DNA of 64,000 bases from assembly GCA_043800725.1 (NCBI GenBank), contig JAZDMR010000011.1, positions 85,369-149,368 on the forward strand, written 5' to 3'. Made by a program: the position numbers and the translations under genes. The DNA comes from a bacterium. GTDB taxonomy: Bacteria > Patescibacteriota > Patescibacteriia > HK-STAS-PATE-3. The notes under the pieces were generated by a model. That model worked only from the letters and a program-made list of their open reading frames with translations, made no database searches and was not told where the DNA came from. Shown one piece after another: positions 1,794 to 62,912 of this stretch. The number at the start of each line of letters is the position of its first letter. Position 1 is the stretch's first letter.

Positions 1794-1872
1794 GCGGGCC
1801 TGTGGTGTAGCCCGGTTAACACGCCTCCCTGTCACGGAGGAGATCGCGAGTTCGAATCTCGTCGGGCCCGCA
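1794..1872 (+). tRNA. tRNA-Asp (anticodon GTC)
   Basis: Hand-folded cloverleaf: 7-bp acceptor gcgggcc/ggcccgc, D-arm tggtgtagcccggttaacac, anticodon stem cctcc/ggagg with loop ctGTCac, T-arm gcgag-ttcgaat-ctcgt; discriminator A; CCA not encoded. Confidence 0.85.
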
Positions 1873-2875: not shown

Positions 2876-3382
2876 TTATTTCTTTCTTATTATCAGGAAG
2901 ATCTTTCCGCCTTGGTGAGACAATTCCTGGTCAGTGATTATATCATCACCCATATTTATTACAAATGTTTTTAACTTTTCGACAGCCAGATTTCGGTGAG
3001 CCCGTTCGCGGCCCTTAAGTAGGATTTCCAAACGTACTTTATGGCCCTGATCCACGAATTTACGCGATTGTTTAGAGCGAACCTCGATATCATGCTGGCC
3101 CATCTTGAATGATAGGCGAATACCTTTGATTTCAGATTTTTTCTGTTTAGCCTTGGATTTACGTTCGGATTTTTCCTGTTGGTACTGGTAAGCGCCGTAG
3201 TCAAGTATTCGGCAAACCGGGGGCTTGGCATTGGGTGCAACTTCGACCAGATCCAGATCATGTTCCTGAGCAAGCCTAAGAGCTTCGGTGGTCTTGATAA
3301 CCCCCAATTGATTGTTGTTCTCGTCAATGACGCGAACTTCCGGATCGCGAATAAAGTGATTAAGTCTGAGCCGCTTCTGTAT
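2876..3382 (-). CDS. infC: translation initiation factor IF-3 (N-terminus extended beyond track ORF; probable non-AUG start, AUA/AUU-type)
   Basis: Track ORF 2876..3307 starts at TTG inside the conserved IF3 N-domain. Reading frame stays open upstream through ...KIQKRLRLNHFIRDPEVRVIDENNNQLGVIKTTEAL... to a stop at 3395-3397. The only start-like codon is ATA at 3380-3382. Confidence 0.75.
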   Translation of the reverse strand: MQKRLRLNHFIRDPEVRVIDENNNQLGVIKTTEALRLAQEHDLDLVEVAPNAKPPVCRILDYGAYQYQQEKSERKSKAKQKKSEIKGIRLSFKMGQHDIEVRSKQSRKFVDQGHKVRLEILLKGRERAHRNLAVEKLKTFVINMGDDIITDQELSHQGGKIFLIIRKK

Positions 3383-3523: not shown

Positions 3524-3931
3524 TGGTGGAGATGGCGGGTATCGCACCCGCGTCTCATCGTACCAAACGATGACTTACTACAAGCTTAGTTCGCTTAAAA
3601 AGTTTCGACAATATGAGTAATTAACGAACGAAAATCCCGCACTGTCTAGCCTCGGCAAAACTTCAGTTTATTCGTGAGACGCCGAATAAACTTATCCTGA
3701 GCGCATTGGCACCCAAGGTGGCAATTCAGGAATTAACCACCCTAGATGGTTGTTGGTTATTAAGCAACAACAGGAGCAAGATTCATCGGTGCGAAAGCTT
3801 GCGCTAAAGCACTTTTGACCTTGCTGGCGAATGTATTGACACTTGCCGTTTTCCAGGGCCTTTTACGGTTTACCTGGGTAACCGACTTGCCGTCATCGAT
3901 TGTAACGAACGATCGATTATTGAACATCCCC
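3524..3931 (-). ncRNA. ssrA: tmRNA (ssrA), ~408 nt
   Basis: Minus strand: 5' GGGGAUG pairs with 3' CAUCUCC-ACCA to form a tRNA-like acceptor stem. T-arm is gcggg-ugcgaua-cccgc. Tag reading frame ends ...NLAPVVA followed by UAAUAACC, cf. E. coli GCUUAAUAACC. Lies directly next to smpB. Confidence 0.7.
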
Positions 3932-20940: not shown

Positions 20941-21240
20941 ATGAAAATCCAAATAAGCAGTGATATAGAAAAGTTTATCTCAACCCTTGAAAAACCAACC
21001 ATTGCGAAAATTTTTCGAACTGTTGATTTACTTGAAATATTTGGTAATCGACTTGGAATGCCACACAGTAAAAAGGTAAAAGGGGGGATTTTTGAGCTTC
21101 GTATTCGCGGCCAACAGGAAGTTCGTATTCTCTATACCTTTCAAAAAAGAGAAATTGTCTTACTACATGGGTTTATTAAGAAATCTCAGAAAACCCCAAA
21201 GCGTGAAATTAAATTAGCTATTAAAAAACTACAAAACTGA
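20941..21240 (+). CDS. RelE/ParE-superfamily toxin of the phage Gp49/HigB-like group
   Basis: ...GGIFELRIRGQQEVRILYTFQKREIVLLHGFIKKSQKTPKREI... matches the Gp49-like/HigB pattern; the start may be the upstream ATG at 20893 instead. Confidence 0.6.
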   Translation: MKIQISSDIEKFISTLEKPTIAKIFRTVDLLEIFGNRLGMPHSKKVKGGIFELRIRGQQEVRILYTFQKREIVLLHGFIKKSQKTPKREIKLAIKKLQN

Positions 21241-21326
21241 CATAATATAATATCTCTTGACATAATATAACATATACGTTATATTTATAATAATTACTAT
21301 AAGGTTATATAAACGAGATAAAACCT

Positions 21327-21611
21327 ATGAAATCCTATAAAACTCTAAAAAGCCAATTACTCAAAGATAAGGGAATCAAAAAAGCCTATGATGAATTAGG
21401 ACCTGAGTTTGAATTGGTGCAACTGGTTATTAAAAAGCGTCTTGAACAAGGGCTAACGCAGGCAGAGCTGGCAAAAAAGATTGGTACTAAACAGGCAGCG
21501 ATTTCCCGTCTGGAGAGCGGTACGTCAAATCCCACAGTGTCTTTTTTACAAAAGGTGGCAGAAGCATTAGGTACGCGACTAAATATTTCAATTTCTACAT
21601 CTCCTCAATAA
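21327..21611 (+). CDS. XRE-family HTH antitoxin (HigA-like)
   Basis: ...GLTQAELAKKIGTKQAAISRLESG... helix-turn-helix; lies immediately downstream of the toxin. Confidence 0.65.
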   Translation: MKSYKTLKSQLLKDKGIKKAYDELGPEFELVQLVIKKRLEQGLTQAELAKKIGTKQAAISRLESGTSNPTVSFLQKVAEALGTRLNISISTSPQ

Positions 21612-29546: not shown

Positions 29547-29558
29547 TATAGTTCAGCT

Positions 29559-29681
29559 ATGGAACATTTAAGTACAATCTTTGGCTGGGGATCACCAATC
29601 GGCTTAGGCATTCTCATATTATGCCTGGGTGGATTTATTTGTCTCGTATCAAAGGCTGACAAGAAGAGAAATAAGGAATAA
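29559..29681 (+). CDS. possible 40-aa single-TM peptide
   Basis: MEHLSTIFGWGSPIGLGILILCLGGFICLVSKADKKRNKE; weak RBS; speculative. Confidence 0.2.
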   Translation: MEHLSTIFGWGSPIGLGILILCLGGFICLVSKADKKRNKE

Positions 29682-29759
29682 TTTAATATTATTGCTGGAA
29701 ATTGACGAGCAATACTTTTTTTGACTGGCTCGTTTTCTACTAACATAAATGTTCTATAG

Positions 29760-29779
29760 GTGAAGATGGCCATCTTCAC
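29760..29779. repeat. perfect 20-bp palindrome gtGAAGATGGCCATCTTCac (16-bp core shared with 62656-62675)
   Basis: Exact dyad symmetry; the second site 33 kb away shares the 16-bp core. Confidence 0.7.
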
Positions 29780-29875
29780 CTGCGGCAAGGTGGATATTAT
29801 TTATTAATATCGTTGGTTTGATTCAACTATAAATTAGGTTAGATTGCGCCCGCCCCTGCCATCCTTTCGGATGGC

Positions 29876-30028
29876 AGAGTATATTAGATGCGGCTCGAAC
29901 CTATTTTGAAAAGAATTCCTGATTTCTGGGGCGGGACGGAATTCCCCCCAGACCCCCTTTCCGCCCCGCCCGTCGGAGCCTGTTCTGAATTTTATTCTGG
30001 GATTTCTCTTTTTCGCTGGGATGTTTCG
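29876..30028. repeat. left arm of ~153-bp terminal inverted repeat (partner at 33414-33567)
   Basis: Reverse complement of 33414-33567 matches with 3-4 mismatches (agagtatattagatgcggctcgaacctattttgaaaagaattcctgatttctggggcgggacggaattcccccc...). Confidence 0.85.
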
Positions 30029-30174
30029 TATCCCGCTACTGCGAGATGCGCCGCCTGATAAGGGAGCGATTGCCCCACCCTCCCGTGCACGCGCTCATTG
30101 CTCCCTGAAAGAGAATACCCTAATTTGGGTTAAACTACTTTAGACTATATCATAAAGGCAAAGGAATCACCACC

Positions 30175-30393
30175 ATGAACAAGACGCAACACAAACGTCA
30201 ATACATCCGTTTTACCCAAAAGCTGAAAGCCGCAAGAATACAAGTGGGTTTGACGCAGATGGAAGCCGCAAAAAAACTGAAAAAGCCACAAACGTATGTA
30301 TCTAAATGCGAACTTGGCGAACGGCGGGTTGATGTCATCGAATTGGCCGGATTTGCTCGGATTTACGATAAATCAATCACCTATTTCGGCTAA
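30175..30393 (+). CDS. XRE-family HTH protein
   Basis: ...VGLTQMEAAKKLKKPQTYVSKCELGERR... helix-turn-helix. Confidence 0.6.
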   Translation: MNKTQHKRQYIRFTQKLKAARIQVGLTQMEAAKKLKKPQTYVSKCELGERRVDVIELAGFARIYDKSITYFG

Positions 30394-30421
30394 TAATAGG
30401 GCAATTACGGCGCAAAGGTTA

Positions 30422-30450
30422 TTGACAAGTTAGCCATTTAGGTGTATTAT
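30422..30450 (+). promoter_or_regulatory. sigma70-like promoter (TTGACA-17 nt-TATTAT) upstream of the DGR target gene
   Basis: ttgacaagttagccatttaggtgtattat has consensus -35 and near-consensus -10 boxes with 17-nt spacing. Confidence 0.5.
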
Positions 30451-30627
30451 TGCCTATCTTTGACAATTGATCCCGGAACAAGCCCGGGACAAGCTTGCGA
30501 ATGAAAGCCGTAGCTTTAAGGGTGTAACTCTTTATGCTTTTGAAGTTGCGGCTACTCACGCCAACGCTCGCAAGCCCGAGGCGACATTCTCGGACAAACA
30601 ATCTCCAATCAAGAGGAGGATGACGAC

Positions 30628-31242
30628 ATGGGAACCCCCATGACCACATCCACGATGACCGAAGGTCAGATAAACCGGGCGTGCGAGATCTTCCGCGCCC
30701 AGCTCACGAGGCGCGCTTCCGAGCTTTCCTCGGACGCGGTACAGGAGGCGTTCGGCGATCCCGCGCTTGGCTCCGACTGGTTCGCCGTTCTGCAGAAGCG
30801 CGTCGATCTCATCGGCAGCACTTTCACGGCCACCGTCAACTATGACGATCCGCAGTGGCGGACCATCGAAAGGAGCCGCTACGCCAACATGAGCGACGTG
30901 AAGCCCAAGGACTACCCGGTCGGCGGGAAGGGCTCGAAGCCAATCAAATACCGCCTCCTGGAGTTCGACCACGATCCGCTCGACGACGAGGTGCTGGCCA
31001 AGATGGCGGAGATGAACTGCCGCCAGCCCGACCGTGCCGAGTCCGAGACGATCATTCGTAGCTTCACTGCCGAGGAGCTTCGGGCGCATCCAGTCATCGG
31101 TCTCATCGGCCCTGCCGTGAAGCGCAATGGCAACCTCCTTCGCGCCTACGTCGATGGCTACGAGAACGGCGTGAACCTCGTCTGGAGCTGGACCGGCAAA
31201 CGCTGGAGTCGGTACTGCCACTTCGTGGCCGTCTGCAAGTAG
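30628..31242 (+). CDS. DGR target (variable) protein, 204 aa, GC-rich; C-terminal variable region of C-type-lectin/FGE-like type
   Basis: C-terminal 133 nt (VR) pairs with the downstream TR; ends ...GYENGVNLVWSWTGKRWSRYCHFVAVCK; no signal peptide; AGGAGG RBS. Confidence 0.75.
   Translation: MGTPMTTSTMTEGQINRACEIFRAQLTRRASELSSDAVQEAFGDPALGSDWFAVLQKRVDLIGSTFTATVNYDDPQWRTIERSRYANMSDVKPKDYPVGGKGSKPIKYRLLEFDHDPLDDEVLAKMAEMNCRQPDRAESETIIRSFTAEELRAHPVIGLIGPAVKRNGNLLRAYVDGYENGVNLVWSWTGKRWSRYCHFVAVCK
31108..31240 (+). repeat. DGR variable repeat (VR)
   Basis: 133 nt aligned to the TR: 11 mismatches, every one at a TR adenine. Confidence 0.85.
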
Positions 31243-31609
31243 AACTTGTTCTCTGGGATCCTGGGAACTTCTGTTCCCTTGGGCCCTTGCATATCGACCC
31301 GCTTCAAATTTCTGGCTTCGGCTGGAAATGCGAGGCGGGTCTTCTTCATTTCAAAAAAATCTGATATACTCTTTACGGAAAGTAAATGACACTGCTCGCG
31401 GCCACGGTTGCGAGCGATTGAACTCTAGTACGTCGAGACGACCGGAATATCCATGACTACGGTTATGGGTAGCGCGTCCCTCACGATTCTTCGGAAACGG
31501 AGATTTACTTGGTGCGGCATATCAGGCGGAGTATAAGGCTCCCGAATGAAATACAGCCCAGAGAGTATTCAATGGGCGGTGGAACAGACGGTATGCTGTA
31601 CAATGTGAC

Positions 31610-31742
31610 GGCCCTGCCGTGAAGCGCAATGGCAACCTCAATCGCGCCTACGTCAATGGCAACGAGAACGGCGTGAACCTCAACTGGAACTGGACCGACA
31701 AACGCTGGAATCAGAACTGCCACTTCGTGGCCGTCTGCAAGT
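31610..31742 (+). repeat. DGR template repeat (TR)
   Basis: Non-coding copy rich in AAC/AAT codons; the VR differs at AAT->CTT, AAT->GAT, AAC->TAC, AAC->GTC, AAC->AGC, GAC->GGC, AAT->AGT, CAG->CGG, AAC->TAC. Confidence 0.85.
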
Positions 31743-31763
31743 TTCTTCGGCTCCTCTCCCTTG

Positions 31764-32111
31764 TCAGGGCAGGGGAGCTTCCGTTTGCAATTGTTTTTTC
31801 CAGCCGCCGAGCATCTTCCCGACTTCAGCTAATGGTTCGGAAATTCGCGCATAGTGTTTTGTATCGAGCGCCTTCAATTCCCACGTAATTTGCAGAAAAT
31901 ATTTGAGCGCATCGAGTTTCGTGCACGCACGTAACACAATTGCTAATTTCATTTCTCGTGATGAGTATCCGGCATGCAAGATCAACTCAACCGTTTCAAT
32001 GAATAACGCATCAATCTTTGCTCCAAGTGTGTATCGCGTCAATCTTGGAATGTGCGGCAATAACCCATGCCAGACCTTATATGCGTCTGAAGCTTTTTGT
32101 AGCACAGGCAA
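31764..32111 (-). CDS. avd: accessory variability determinant (Avd), four-helix-bundle family
   Basis: ...LLPHIPRLTRYTLGAKIDALFIETVELILHAGYSSRE...ISEPLAEVGKMLGGWKKQ is collinear with Bordetella phage bAvd (...PIAQSIPRKHGVAREMFLKCLLGQVELFIVAGKSNQ...LIAEVGRILGSWI...). It is encoded on the strand opposite to the target, TR and RT. Confidence 0.7.
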   Translation of the reverse strand: MPVLQKASDAYKVWHGLLPHIPRLTRYTLGAKIDALFIETVELILHAGYSSREMKLAIVLRACTKLDALKYFLQITWELKALDTKHYARISEPLAEVGKMLGGWKKQLQTEAPLP

Positions 32112-32160
32112 ATTGCCGAAAGCGTTGGGGGGGGGGCGACTTAATTGCTTTCTGCGTACT

Positions 32161-33168
32161 ATGAATATTCAACTGCGTCATACGTATCAGGAAATTATTG
32201 GGTTAGAAAATTTGCTGGCGGCGTGGGAGGAGTTCCGGTTAGGTAAGCGCGACAAACCGGATGTCCAGGCATTTGTCCGCCACCTCCTGGATAACATTGT
32301 ACAGCTTCATGAGGATTTAGCCAACTTTACCTATCGGCACGGCGGGTACAAAGCGTTCGCCATCAACGACCCGAAGCCGCGACAAATCCACAAAGCCAGC
32401 GTGCGTGATCGGTTATTGCACCACGTCATCTATCGCATTTTGTATCCATTCTTTGACCGCACGTTTATTGCTGACTCGTTTTCCTGCCGGGTGGATAAGG
32501 GCACATTGAATGCGATAGAAAGGTTTCAAACATTTGGCTACCAAGTCAGCCGCAATAATACGCGCACGTGCTGGGTATTGAAATGCGATATTCGGAAATT
32601 CTTTGCAAATATCAATCATGGTATTCTGTTACAAGTTCTTGCAAGGTATCTACCTGACCAAAATATCCTGTGGTTGCTGGAAAATGTAATCGACAGTTTT
32701 GACACGAAACCGGGTGTCGGCTTGTCGCTGGGTAATCTCACGTCACAGTTGTTCGTGAATGTCTACATGAACGAATTTGACCAATTTGTGAAACAAAAGA
32801 TGAGGTGGAAACACTACATTCGGTATGCTGACGATTTTGCATTTCTCTCGGATGATCGAACAGTGCTTGCGGCAATGCTTCCTATGGTTGATGATTATTT
32901 GGTGGCAACATTACAGCTCCAACTTCATCCCGACAAGGTGTTTATCAAGACCCTTGCCTCCGGCGTGGATTTTCTCGGCTGGGTGCATTTCTTAAACCAT
33001 CGGGTATTGCGAACCACGGCACGGTGGCGAATGATGGCGCGAATCAAAGAACACGGCACGCCGGAAACGGTGCAATCGTATTTAGGTTTATTACAGCATG
33101 GCAATACGTACAGACTCGAACAGGAAGTGCGGAATGCCGAATGGTTGTGGTATAATGATAACAATTAA
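32161..33168 (+). CDS. DGR reverse transcriptase
   Basis: RT motifs: IHKASVRDRLLHHV..., ...YIRYADDFAF (YxDD box), ...GVDFLGW...; start set to the ATG at 32161 (MNIQLRH), giving ~335 aa. Track ORF 31903 would overlap avd and runs through a G10 tract. Confidence 0.85.
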   Translation: MNIQLRHTYQEIIGLENLLAAWEEFRLGKRDKPDVQAFVRHLLDNIVQLHEDLANFTYRHGGYKAFAINDPKPRQIHKASVRDRLLHHVIYRILYPFFDRTFIADSFSCRVDKGTLNAIERFQTFGYQVSRNNTRTCWVLKCDIRKFFANINHGILLQVLARYLPDQNILWLLENVIDSFDTKPGVGLSLGNLTSQLFVNVYMNEFDQFVKQKMRWKHYIRYADDFAFLSDDRTVLAAMLPMVDDYLVATLQLQLHPDKVFIKTLASGVDFLGWVHFLNHRVLRTTARWRMMARIKEHGTPETVQSYLGLLQHGNTYRLEQEVRNAEWLWYNDNN

Positions 33169-33413
33169 TGGCGGACAACATGGCGAAACAGGAATTTGGA
33201 CAACAATGCTTCAACAAATGCGGCAAGCAGAGATTTACTGAAACAGATGGTTGGTATTTCGACTCTGCAGGTTCAACCGGAGTCGGAATGTCCACGCCAC
33301 CGGACGTAACCTATTTTCGGGTACTTTGTTAAGACTGTTATTCTGGGGTCGGCGGTGAACGCTGGAAACCGATACCTACATCTGACTAACGCGGCGCGCG
33401 TCGTACTTGGCGC

Positions 33414-33567
33414 ACGAAACATCCCAGCGAAAAAGAGAAATCCTAGAATAAAATTCAGAACAGGCTCCGACGGGCGGGGCGGAAGGGTGGTCTGGGGGGA
33501 ATTCCGTCCCGCCCCAGAAATCAGGAATTCTTTTCAAAATAGGTTCGAGCCGCATCTAATATACTCT
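33414..33567. repeat. right arm of the ~153-bp inverted repeat (partner at 29876-30028)
   Basis: See left arm. Confidence 0.85.
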
Positions 33568-33768
33568 CCCTAAAACTCCCCTCCTAATAATTGGAGGGGT
33601 TGGTGGTGGGGCGGGCTTTCAGCTATAGTTAGATATTAATTTGACCACTTGACCACTTGAATACTTATTTGTATAGTAATTATTGAAGGCAAGAATATTT
33701 GGAATGCCTTCTGTGACAGTGTTCTTTTCAAATGTGTGTAACCTTCGTTTCTCCATGGAGGAATCGAT

Positions 33769-34248
33769 ATGAAAAAAGTATCCTGGTGGCTCCTGGTTCC
33801 GTTGATAGTCGCCGTCGCGATGATTTGCGTGAACGAGGGCATGGCCATCCCAATCGAAATGACGATGGACGCGATCCAGAAAGTCTCAATAACCAGAGAC
33901 GAAATCGCTACGCAGAACGAGGCTACGAGCTACAATACCAGCATCTTCGAAGCGCTGGTCGTGGCTCAGTACGTGGCGGACGCTGATAACGAGGGCTATC
34001 TCCCGGAAAACCAACAAAACCAAGGCGCCAACATTGATAATGAGGCGGCGACGGTAATGTACGAGGTCTATGTCCTCAAATTGCCGATCGACGCTAATGA
34101 CGCTTTGACTTCTTCTTCCTGGAATTATGCCGCCGAAACTACGGAAGCTATGACTGAAACTGGGGTCTCCAAGGGGCAAGCGCCAATCACGATCATTGCG
34201 TTCAGGATCATACACGAGACGCCGTCGACCATCGTCCTGCGGGCCTAA
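33769..34248 (+). CDS. hypothetical secreted protein (signal peptide)
   Basis: MKKVSWWLLVPLIVAVAMICVNEGMA... signal peptide; acidic, low-complexity mature part. Confidence 0.45.
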   Translation: MKKVSWWLLVPLIVAVAMICVNEGMAIPIEMTMDAIQKVSITRDEIATQNEATSYNTSIFEALVVAQYVADADNEGYLPENQQNQGANIDNEAATVMYEVYVLKLPIDANDALTSSSWNYAAETTEAMTETGVSKGQAPITIIAFRIIHETPSTIVLRA

Positions 34249-62675: not shown

Positions 62676-62912
62676 TTTCTGTAATGAGATTGTTGCGTCC
62701 TTATGTACTATCGAGATTTAAAAAATACGAATCCCTGACACGAGTCATCGAGGGGAAGGGTCTCCCCCGGCATTCAGGGCAAGTGGAGATGCTTCACTGA
62801 AGTTCAACAATACGAGTGATGGAGATCCTTCGCAAGCTCGCAATGGCTGCAGGGGGGGGCTGACGGTGCGGGATGCTTGCCCAGGGTCCTTTGTTTGTTA
62901 TAGTGTGTAAGC

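Follow-up and report, generated by a model that had tools for sequence, protein, structure and literature searches.

A diversity-generating retroelement of Patescibacteria: turnover of the variable repeat between two populations, a covarying RNA domain before the template repeat, and a simple repeat between avd and the reverse transcriptase gene

Introduction

Is a compact gene block that carries two near-identical repeats, a reverse transcriptase (RT) and long inverted repeats at its edges a working diversity-generating retroelement (DGR), and if so, how might its mutagenesis be templated and controlled, and does the block move? The question is raised by a stretch of 64,000 nt from a bacterium of the Patescibacteriota (Patescibacteriia; HK-STAS-PATE-3), namely positions 85,369 to 149,368 of contig JAZDMR010000011.1 in NCBI GenBank assembly GCA_043800725.1, which we refer to as the window. 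A preliminary description of this DNA had read the block as a DGR with adenine-specific mutagenesis that rides on, or is, a mobile or invertible element. We argue here that it is very probably an active, chromosomal DGR of the Patescibacteria (candidate phyla radiation, CPR), with the layout target - template repeat (TR) - (avd) - RT. As a DGR it is ordinary: a new member of a known, large CPR clade.

Results

Adenine-specific differences between the two repeats

The 3' end of the target gene, or variable repeat (VR), recurs beside the RT gene as the TR, the two forming a direct repeat of 134 nt (Table 1). They differ at 11 positions, and all 11 are adenines in the TR; with 35 adenines in 134 nt, the hypergeometric probability of this pattern is 1e-7, and the adenine-only mismatches claimed by the preliminary description were found again in full. 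Read in the frame of the VR, 34 of the 35 TR adenines occupy codon positions 1 or 2, and 11 codons are of the form AAY, which is the classic design of a DGR. The two repeats also end alike, the last 26 nt being GC-rich and identical in VR and TR (a comparison of the initiation of mutagenic homing sequence, IMH, with its TR counterpart, IMH*), and identical 3' ends of VR and TR do occur (Wu et al. 2018, PMC5758913). Past the VR stands a small hairpin of a type that is absent after the TR, analogous to the GC-rich inverted repeat downstream of the IMH in other DGRs (Wu et al., PMC5758913).

The proteins encoded alongside fit this pattern. The translated RT contains LGNLTSQ, an instance of motif 4 ([I/L]GxxxSQ), as well as YADD within YIRYADDFAF, and together with its Pfam RVT_1 match this bears out the YxDD reverse transcriptase that had been described downstream. 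The Avd-like protein noted between TR and RT on the opposite strand is identified as the accessory variability determinant by PF22296 (55.2 bits, above the cut-off of 40); it also matches PHROG 3206 (5e-19) and, at 71.5 bits and just below the cut-off of 80, the NCBIfam model NF033474 DivGenRetAVD. The XRE-family helix-turn-helix (HTH) gene said to lie within the unit bounded by the inverted repeats likewise holds up, through Pfam HTH_3.

Turnover of the variable repeat between two populations

A second NCBI assembly, GCA_043827125.1, also encodes the target, RT and HTH proteins, and its contig (L004) aligns without gaps to window positions 20640-41242, a span of 20,603 nt at 99.9% identity. 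The two sequences differ at 22 positions, 19 of which lie in the VR, and 18 of these 19 fall at TR-adenine positions; by chance, 18 or more of 19 VR differences would fall on adenines with P = 8e-12. Outside the VR there are 3 differences in 20.5 kb, equivalent to 99.99% identity between two populations, and the density of differences is ~1000-fold higher in the VR than in its flanks. The TR, the inverted repeats and a G tract upstream of the RT gene are unchanged. Compared with the TR, the VR of L004 has 16 mismatches, 15 of them at adenines, and the set of adenine positions differs from that of the window; one Logan contig bears the same VR as L004. The preliminary description had expected VR polymorphism at the adenine-templated positions, failing which the DGR would have been in doubt, and at the level of consensus sequences this is what the 18 of 19 VR differences are. 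The VR has turned over between two natural populations, and because the two assemblies differ almost only at TR-adenine positions of the VR, the element appears, from these sequences, to be active in nature.

Could the VR and TR nonetheless be an ordinary duplication with chance mismatches, standing beside an unrelated RT of a group II intron or a retron? The top NCBIfam match of the RT is indeed a group II intron RT model, at 125 bits and below its cut-off of 300. Yet every VR/TR mismatch falls on an adenine, with the probability of 1e-7 given above, the second population differs at another set of adenine positions, avd is adjacent to an RT with the LGxxxSQ motif, and no intron RNA domains or Rfam match were found. 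The adenine-only mismatches and the second assembly refute such a duplication, to which we give practically no credence. The VR/TR pattern, the RT, Avd and the second assembly together confirm a DGR with adenine-specific mutagenesis.

A known clade with a fixed layout

Where does this element belong? A scan of JGI metagenomes with the RT alignment confirmed at least 479 relatives among the first 600 matching stretches, and in the best 80 of these the RT is 58-66% identical to that of the window. In each of these 80 loci with sufficient upstream DNA, avd runs opposite to the RT gene and lies 30-60 nt from its start. The inverted avd, which the preliminary description took for an uncommon arrangement, is instead the norm of the clade, and it corresponds to architecture B3 of Wu et al. 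2018 (PMC5758913), TR-(avd)-RT with avd reversed, which made up 90% of their CPR set. In two loci with homologous targets, one from Kerfeldbacteria (L001) and one a metagenome contig (L090), the order is likewise target(+), TR, avd(-), RT(+).

The window shares with CPR DGRs (B3; clade 2 of Roux et al. 2021, PMC8144416) the order of target, TR, reverse-strand avd and RT, a lone neighbouring target whose C-terminus holds the VR and which has no recognisable transmembrane or known domain, a chromosomal location and a Patescibacteria host. The window copy differs from them in its 157-bp inverted repeats, its HTH gene and its small, unannotated target family. The HTH gene has no homolog in 80 related DGR loci, and is therefore not a conserved DGR component.

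A covarying RNA domain on the 5' side of the template repeat

Directly 5' of the TR lies a segment with a conserved predicted fold. Across an alignment of the 250 nt upstream of the TR in 38 loci (MAFFT; alignment A4), RNAalifold gave 45 base pairs, 38 of which show compensatory changes. In this alignment 96.1% of cells are paired, against ~40% in controls with the partners slid 1 to 3 columns out of place, and double changes occupy 447 cells against ~82 in the slid controls, with no shuffle attaining any observed measure. The predicted fold includes P3, a long-range helix of 12 bp that joins 31510-31521 to 31590-31601 and ends 7 nt before the TR. An nhmmer profile of the domain matches the window at 31374-31604 only (E = 4e-44) and is present in 61 of 83 DGR loci, nearly all of the misses being loci without upstream DNA. 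Rfam 15, run over 29550-33800 on both strands, returned no relevant match at E <= 1, and the RT-10 motif of Weinberg et al. 2017 went undetected in the Rfam search. We found no description of such a domain in the literature searched; the survey of Handa et al. (PMC6182149; bioRxiv 10.1101/2023.10.23.563531) covered only 40 nt upstream of the TR, and would miss a domain of ~230 nt.

A second, shorter pairing would close the other side of the TR. Segment X (consensus AAAAATGAAG, CGGAGA in the window), just 5' of the near-invariant ACTTGGT, can pair with segment X' (consensus CTTCATTT, TCTTCG in the window). Held in a fixed register in 37 loci, 84% of the X:X' cells are paired, against ~50% in slid controls, all nine pairs show double changes, and none of 500 shuffles attains the observed values. 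The fixed-register count was used here, the comparison of cognate with non-cognate X:X' by unconstrained RNAduplex being uninformative, dominated by A- and T-runs.

Beyond X' stands a hairpin followed by TTTTGTTTT, conserved in relatives, and stem-loops occur just downstream of the TR in 207 of 278 DGRs (Handa et al.). By its form, the stem-loop would be the terminator of the TR RNA, and it is also a candidate Avd-binding stem-loop. At the other end, 31 of 38 related loci have the extended -10 motif TGnTAnnnT; in most it stands ~30-32 nt ahead of helix P1 and follows a T-rich run. The conserved -10 and the post-TR stem-loop with its T-run suggest that the TR RNA is a transcript of its own, of ~410 nt, with no need for an antisense run through avd.

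How would such an RNA prime and stop cDNA synthesis? In the DGR of the Bordetella phage BPP-1, the equivalent sequence is a 140-nt spacer 3' of the TR (Handa et al.), which presents, in order, an Avd-binding stem-loop; a strand paired to the 3' terminus of the TR, with the priming adenosine A56 at its end; a two-base linker; a strand of the "stop" duplex formed with sequence upstream of the TR; a thumb ring; and an RT-binding stem-loop. The window resembles BPP-1 in its RT and Avd, its adenine-mutagenic TR-to-VR transfer, the hairpin after the VR, the predicted C-type-lectin fold of its target and the stem-loop directly after the TR. The order of RNA strands is also alike: the partner of the TR 3' flank (here X), a conserved adenosine (31507) with its linker, and then a strand of P3. 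However, BPP-1 has its structured RNA 3' of the TR, whereas the window has ~230 nt of it on the 5' side and only X' and the stem-loop on the 3' side, a permuted arrangement; the genes of BPP-1 are all co-oriented whilst avd is inverted here; the BPP-1 target is a phage tail fibre, and that of the window lacks an export signal; and no sequence or Rfam similarity was found between the two RNAs. By analogy, the window RNA may be a circularly permuted DGR RNA, in which the 5' domain would be the equivalent of the BPP-1 spacer, supplying primer strand, priming adenosine and stop duplex in permuted order. P3 would then act as the stop, and A31507, our candidate primer, is proposed as the priming adenosine.

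Retron non-coding RNAs (msr-msd) are comparable too, having a structured RNA 5' of the templated region and a helix that joins upstream sequence to sequence just 3' of that region, beside the proposed 2'-OH priming nucleotide. There is, however, no sequence relationship, and the window has a DGR-clade RT, an Avd and retrohoming into a VR.

A simple repeat between avd and the RT gene

The G10 tract that the preliminary description had placed upstream of the RT start lies 24 nt before the RT ATG (32161). Is it a peculiarity of this copy? In 77 loci from the set L093-L172, L001 and L090, the RT start is preceded by 100 nt or more of sequence; 65 of these loci carry a run of G6-G14, most often G10, which in most cases stands 16-24 nt ahead of that start and is without exception on the RT strand. 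In six others this place is taken by another simple repeat, (GT)n in three, (GA)n in two and (CTGG)9 in one, and the remaining six have none. Elsewhere, the surveyed loci contain only 8 G/C runs of 7 or more in 507 kb. Two contigs from different metagenomes (L113 and L114) are identical over 2,211 nt save for G9 in one and G10 in the other. The window itself has only one other G-run of 7 or more, at 62852, against which read errors in homopolymers could be gauged within the same DNA.

Varied repeat types at a single site between two divergent, co-acting genes give this tract the appearance of a slipped-strand switch, and, judged from this distribution, it may act as a length-variable switch on the expression of avd and RT. 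In Haemophilus influenzae, a (TA)n tract between hifA and hifB is a divergent-promoter contingency locus. The likeness extends to a simple repeat of 8-14 units, a very short spacer and divergent, co-acting genes; yet hifA-hifB controls a surface structure, whereas the pair in the window would be a mutagenesis machine, for which a single length difference was observed. The DGR literature that we searched for homopolymers or phase variation held nothing on a simple repeat between avd and RT.

Alternatively, the poly-G could be a fixed element, be it part of a divergent promoter, a non-B-DNA spacer or a 5'-untranslated-region element of the RT or avd mRNA, and we regard this as a serious possibility, if one that falls a little short of probable. 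On the RT-sense strand the tract, where it is a homopolymer, is G in every case, its lengths cluster tightly at 8-11, it has the same length in both assemblies, and five of six near-identical contig pairs are equal. Nevertheless, the six relatives with (GT)n, (GA)n or (CTGG)n at the same place argue for a shared property, slippage or non-B DNA, and not for a specific sequence, and the L113 and L114 contigs differ by one G alone in 2.2 kb.

Inverted repeats around the cassette

What, then, are the inverted repeats that surround the unit? Described earlier as near-perfect and ~153 bp long, they are real and somewhat longer: two arms of 157 nt, complementary at 153 of 157 positions (97% identical) and 3384 nt apart. 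Both arm boundaries are sharp, and beyond them similarity drops to the level of shuffled sequence. It was on these repeats that the earlier claim of a mobile or invertible element was built, with the DGR and the HTH gene as its cargo and the 157-bp terminal inverted repeats as its ends; such a unit would depend for its movement on a transposase or recombinase encoded elsewhere, or would invert when its two arms recombine.

Several observations speak for mobility of this kind. Exactly the HTH-target-TR-avd-RT block lies between the arms, which are long, highly alike and end sharply, and the HTH gene of this block is no part of related DGRs. The motif GGGGCGGG is found six times in the window, where 1.5 occurrences would be expected, and four of the six stand at the two ends of the unit, symmetrically within and just outside both arms (29849-29856, 29928-29935, 33508-33515 and 33608-33615). 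The place of the cassette is also a changeable one. In relatives found through the glycyl-tRNA synthetase (GlyRS), ClpC is followed by ~2 kb of unrelated genes and then by GlyRS, and since the nearest relatives have different genes there, the ClpC-GlyRS interval is a variable spot; a search for an empty site met no informative relative, the nearest GlyRS being 77% identical and the intervening 159-aa protein (p159) an orphan.

The hallmarks of a mobile element are nevertheless missing. There is no target-site duplication, the flanks reading ...TTTCGGAT up to the left arm and TAAAACTC from the right arm onwards, without a direct repeat; and no transposase, integrase or invertase gene lies inside the unit or among the genes within ~10 kb on either side. 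The 64-kb window holds no second copy of the repeat, exact 22-27-mers of it were absent from GTDB representative genomes, JGI metagenomes and IMG/VR, and neither blastn against phage and plasmid collections nor nhmmer against ~170 fetched related loci gave a match. Long inverted repeats around related DGRs were seen only in L112, L128 and L133, none of them bracketing a whole cassette as here. No flipped orientation was seen, the window and L004 being alike and the Logan contigs without conflict, a comparison of assembled sequences that has low power. The GC content of the RT, avd and HTH genes is host-like. Taken with these absences, mobility or inversion is in our view an unlikely explanation of the repeats.

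An attempt to examine inversion from the short Logan contigs was set aside, as these merely break inside the arms and at the VR and TR; the breaks, ~60 nt inside each arm, are what is expected for a repeat.

Perhaps, then, a non-coding segment of ~160-230 nt was duplicated in inverted orientation whilst the cassette was assembled or rearranged, and the repeats are the by-product; they would have no function in mobility and would at most act as insulators or terminators, or serve the HTH protein as operator clusters. The clade does show such inverted duplications around its avd-RT core more than once: in L112, L124 and L128 the post-VR or TR-RNA region is present a second time, inverted and directly behind the RT, which gives a layout that is palindromic around avd-RT; all such copies run to contig ends, and those of L112 and L128 share nothing with the 157-bp repeat of the window. 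Outside both arms, moreover, the same short patches stand in the same order (ATTAATATC, AACTATA, GCCCGCCCC, then a hairpin), which suggests an older and longer duplication, now partly decayed; different hairpins abut the outer arm ends, at 29856-29877 and about 33581-33603. That these patches and the GGGGCGGG symmetry amount to more than chance is a hint. The lack of mobile-element hallmarks also fits a by-product. On the other side, 97% identity and sharp edges would require a recent event or gene conversion, the repeat resembles neither the TR-RNA region nor anything in the ~170 related loci, and a functional role as insulator, terminator or operator is hypothetical.

Two other derivations were tried and dropped. 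The repeat does not stem from the TR-RNA promoter or 5' domain, the RNA profile matching 31374-31604 only; a 14-nt match does exist between the outer end of the repeat and 31359-31372. Rfam at a permissive threshold gave only chance matches to long non-coding RNAs on the arms.

We rank by-product duplication, which we think may well be right without calling it probable, above mobile or invertible ends, and both fall short of established. In either case the inverted repeats would mark the edges of a 3.7-kb cassette, and DGR function would not need them.

The target gene and its family

What does the element diversify? A structure model of the target protein matches C-type-lectin folds, a kind of fold that the preliminary description proposed to look for by modelling the C-terminus. 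Its N-terminus, judged by reading the sequence, has no hydrophobic stretch, which agrees with the earlier statement that a signal peptide is lacking and is typical of CPR DGRs, whose targets are typically without transmembrane or known domains (Roux et al. 2021, PMC8144416); the protein probably stays in the cytoplasm.

The family is small and lacks annotation: 15 homologs were found among 5.8 billion proteins, and searches of Pfam, NCBIfam, PHROGs, PDB sequences, INPHARED phages and IMG/VR gave no match to the target. Of the homologs of its C-type-lectin-like domain, the two nearest, P0003 (L085:7635-8219) and P0010 (L086:8001-8849), lie in phage-like early or recombination modules (RecT/RusA/PD-(D/E)XK and Rad52/ParB-methylase), with no RT in the DNA examined at either locus, and P0010 also contains an HNH endonuclease domain as an in-frame fusion. 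P0005 and P0008 adjoin housekeeping genes, with no RT downstream. Residues 1-65 of the target (30628-30825) are common to P0013-P0015, which have another C-terminal domain and end without a VR-like sequence; one of these comes from a Methanoregula metagenome-assembled genome.

The family is also GC-rich, at 54-65% in every genomic context (window 30628-31242; L001, L085-L090), whilst the surrounding DNA and the cognate RT and avd genes are at 44-55% in seven of eight loci, the exception being L087 with 61% overall. In the window, the target gene has 62.6% GC, against 46% for RT, 46% for avd, 43% for the HTH gene and a window mean of 44.6%. The GC content far above the surroundings that the preliminary description attributed to the unit therefore holds for the target gene, the spacer and the TR, and not for RT, avd and HTH, which lie near the window mean.

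Other features and genomic neighbourhood

The features of the unit are collected in Table 1. The 54-aa open reading frame that overlaps the RT stop codon has no Pfam or NCBIfam match and no homolog in related loci, is uncalled in L004 and is probably not a gene. The promoter-like site in front of the target gene is identified by its consensus match alone. The unit is flanked by genes for a ClpC-like ATPase, the orphan p159, GlyRS and an M16 peptidase. Outside its own assembly, the GlyRS has its best relatives at 73-77% identity, several of which come from Patescibacteria assemblies; among relatives with a named lineage, those of Kerfeldbacteria are nearest (~70%).

Further afield, the window holds a tmRNA gene at 3524-3931 (-; Rfam, 94 bits) and a tRNA-Asp(GTC) at 1796-1871 (+). 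A Gp49 (HigB-like) gene and an HTH gene at 20941-21611 (L004:302-972) are likely a toxin-antitoxin pair, and one of the three differences between the assemblies outside the VR (21604) falls in the HTH gene of this pair. Between ClpC and the left arm, a short open reading frame at 29560-29682 (+) encodes a hydrophobic peptide of ~40 aa (MEHLSTIFGWGSPIGLGILILCLGGFICLVSKADKKRNKE).

Table 1. Features of the DGR unit in window coordinates, and inverted copies in related loci
Feature	Position	Strand	Remarks
Left arm of inverted repeat	29873..30029	.	153/157 complementary to right arm; same in L004
XRE-family HTH gene, 72 aa	30175..30393	+	Inside the unit bounded by the inverted repeats; Pfam HTH_3, 7.5e-10
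Promoter-like site TTGACA-17-TATTAT	30422..30450	+	Upstream of target gene; 11/12 consensus positions
Target gene, 204 aa	30628..31242	+	NCBI start 30640; N-terminal helical module and predicted C-terminal C-type-lectin-like domain with VR
VR	31107..31240	+	Last 44 codons of the 204-aa open reading frame 30628-31242
Hairpin GGGAAC-TTCT-GTTCCC	31263..31278	+	DNA fold; 6 bp, 4-nt loop; 22 nt past VR
Putative extended -10 element (TGATATACT) of separate TR-RNA promoter	31362..31370	+	TGnTAnnnT conserved in relatives
Predicted structured RNA domain directly 5' of TR	31374..31604	+	P1, P2, P2a, long-range P3 enclosing P4 and P5
Segment X, then near-invariant ACTTGGT	31498..31513	+	X = 31498-31503; ACTTGGT = 31507-31513; invariant columns (A4, A5)
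TR	31609..31742	+	Non-coding, outside any supported gene, beside RT; same sequence in both assemblies
Segment X'	31744..31749	+	Starts one base past the end of TR/VR homology; predicted to pair with X
Stem-loop and T-rich tract	31750..31800	+	~12 bp, tetraloop, one bulge; overlaps avd 3' end on the other strand
avd (accessory variability determinant)	31764..32111	-	Divergent from RT gene; PF22296 bAvd, 1e-14
G10 tract	32127..32136	+	In 49-nt avd-RT divergent spacer; candidate slipped-strand (contingency) tract
DGR reverse transcriptase, 335 aa	32161..33168	+	RVT_1, 2e-20; PHROG 1423, 9e-101
54-aa open reading frame	33168..33332	+	Overlaps RT stop codon; no family match
Right arm of inverted repeat	33414..33570	.	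157 nt
Inverted copies in relatives	L112:1342-1441 with 3171-3270; L128:20-151 with 1938-2069; L124:1258-1603

Discussion

How might these parts work together? A separate transcript of ~410 nt would start near 31377 from the extended -10 promoter and contain the folded 5' domain of ~230 nt, the 134-nt TR, X' and the terminator stem-loop. P3 would close the 5' side of the TR and X:X' its 3' side, so that both TR ends would meet at the near-invariant ACTTGGT linker. The RT and Avd would copy the TR into cDNA, misincorporating opposite adenines, and this cDNA would replace the VR at the 3' end of the target gene, rewriting up to ~20 codons of a C-type-lectin-like domain in a small, probably cytoplasmic protein.

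Taken jointly, these elements would describe a CPR clade whose hypermutation is switched by slippage of the repeat between avd and RT, whose template RNA is a permuted form of the BPP-1 RNA with a 5' domain that primes and stops synthesis, and which in the window is carried on an inverted-repeat cassette that may move or invert. We put this combination forward tentatively, and consider it rather doubtful as a whole. Several points weigh against our main reading and the parts proposed for it. One of the VR differences between the assemblies (31222) stands at a TR thymine, and activity is read from two consensus assemblies and one Logan contig. The tracts of the window and L004 are identical, and only one of six near-identical contig pairs differs in length, a difference that may be sequencing error; the constant G on the RT strand could reflect a sequence-specific role and not a mutational one. 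The structure of the RNA is predicted from covariation and its roles are proposed by analogy, and the X:X' register was anchored by hand in 9 of the 37 loci, with a bias towards structure. The 157-bp inverted repeats, finally, fall outside the proposed mechanism.

The value of this locus lies in the combination of an example of natural activity, a simple repeat between avd and RT that extends across the clade, and a covarying RNA domain 5' of the TR. The first offers a clean natural case, in which 18 adenine-templated positions have been rewritten between two near-identical populations. The covarying domain provides a second, independent RNA with which to test which features of priming and termination are essential to DGRs. 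The target family, small, free of export signals, GC-rich and with relatives in phage modules, is an unusual one, and bears on the question of what CPR DGRs diversify. As for the simple repeat, it is present in ~90% of relatives; were it a true slippage switch, it would represent a level of DGR control for which we found no description in the literature searched, and cells of this clade would be gambling on whether to hypermutate at all.

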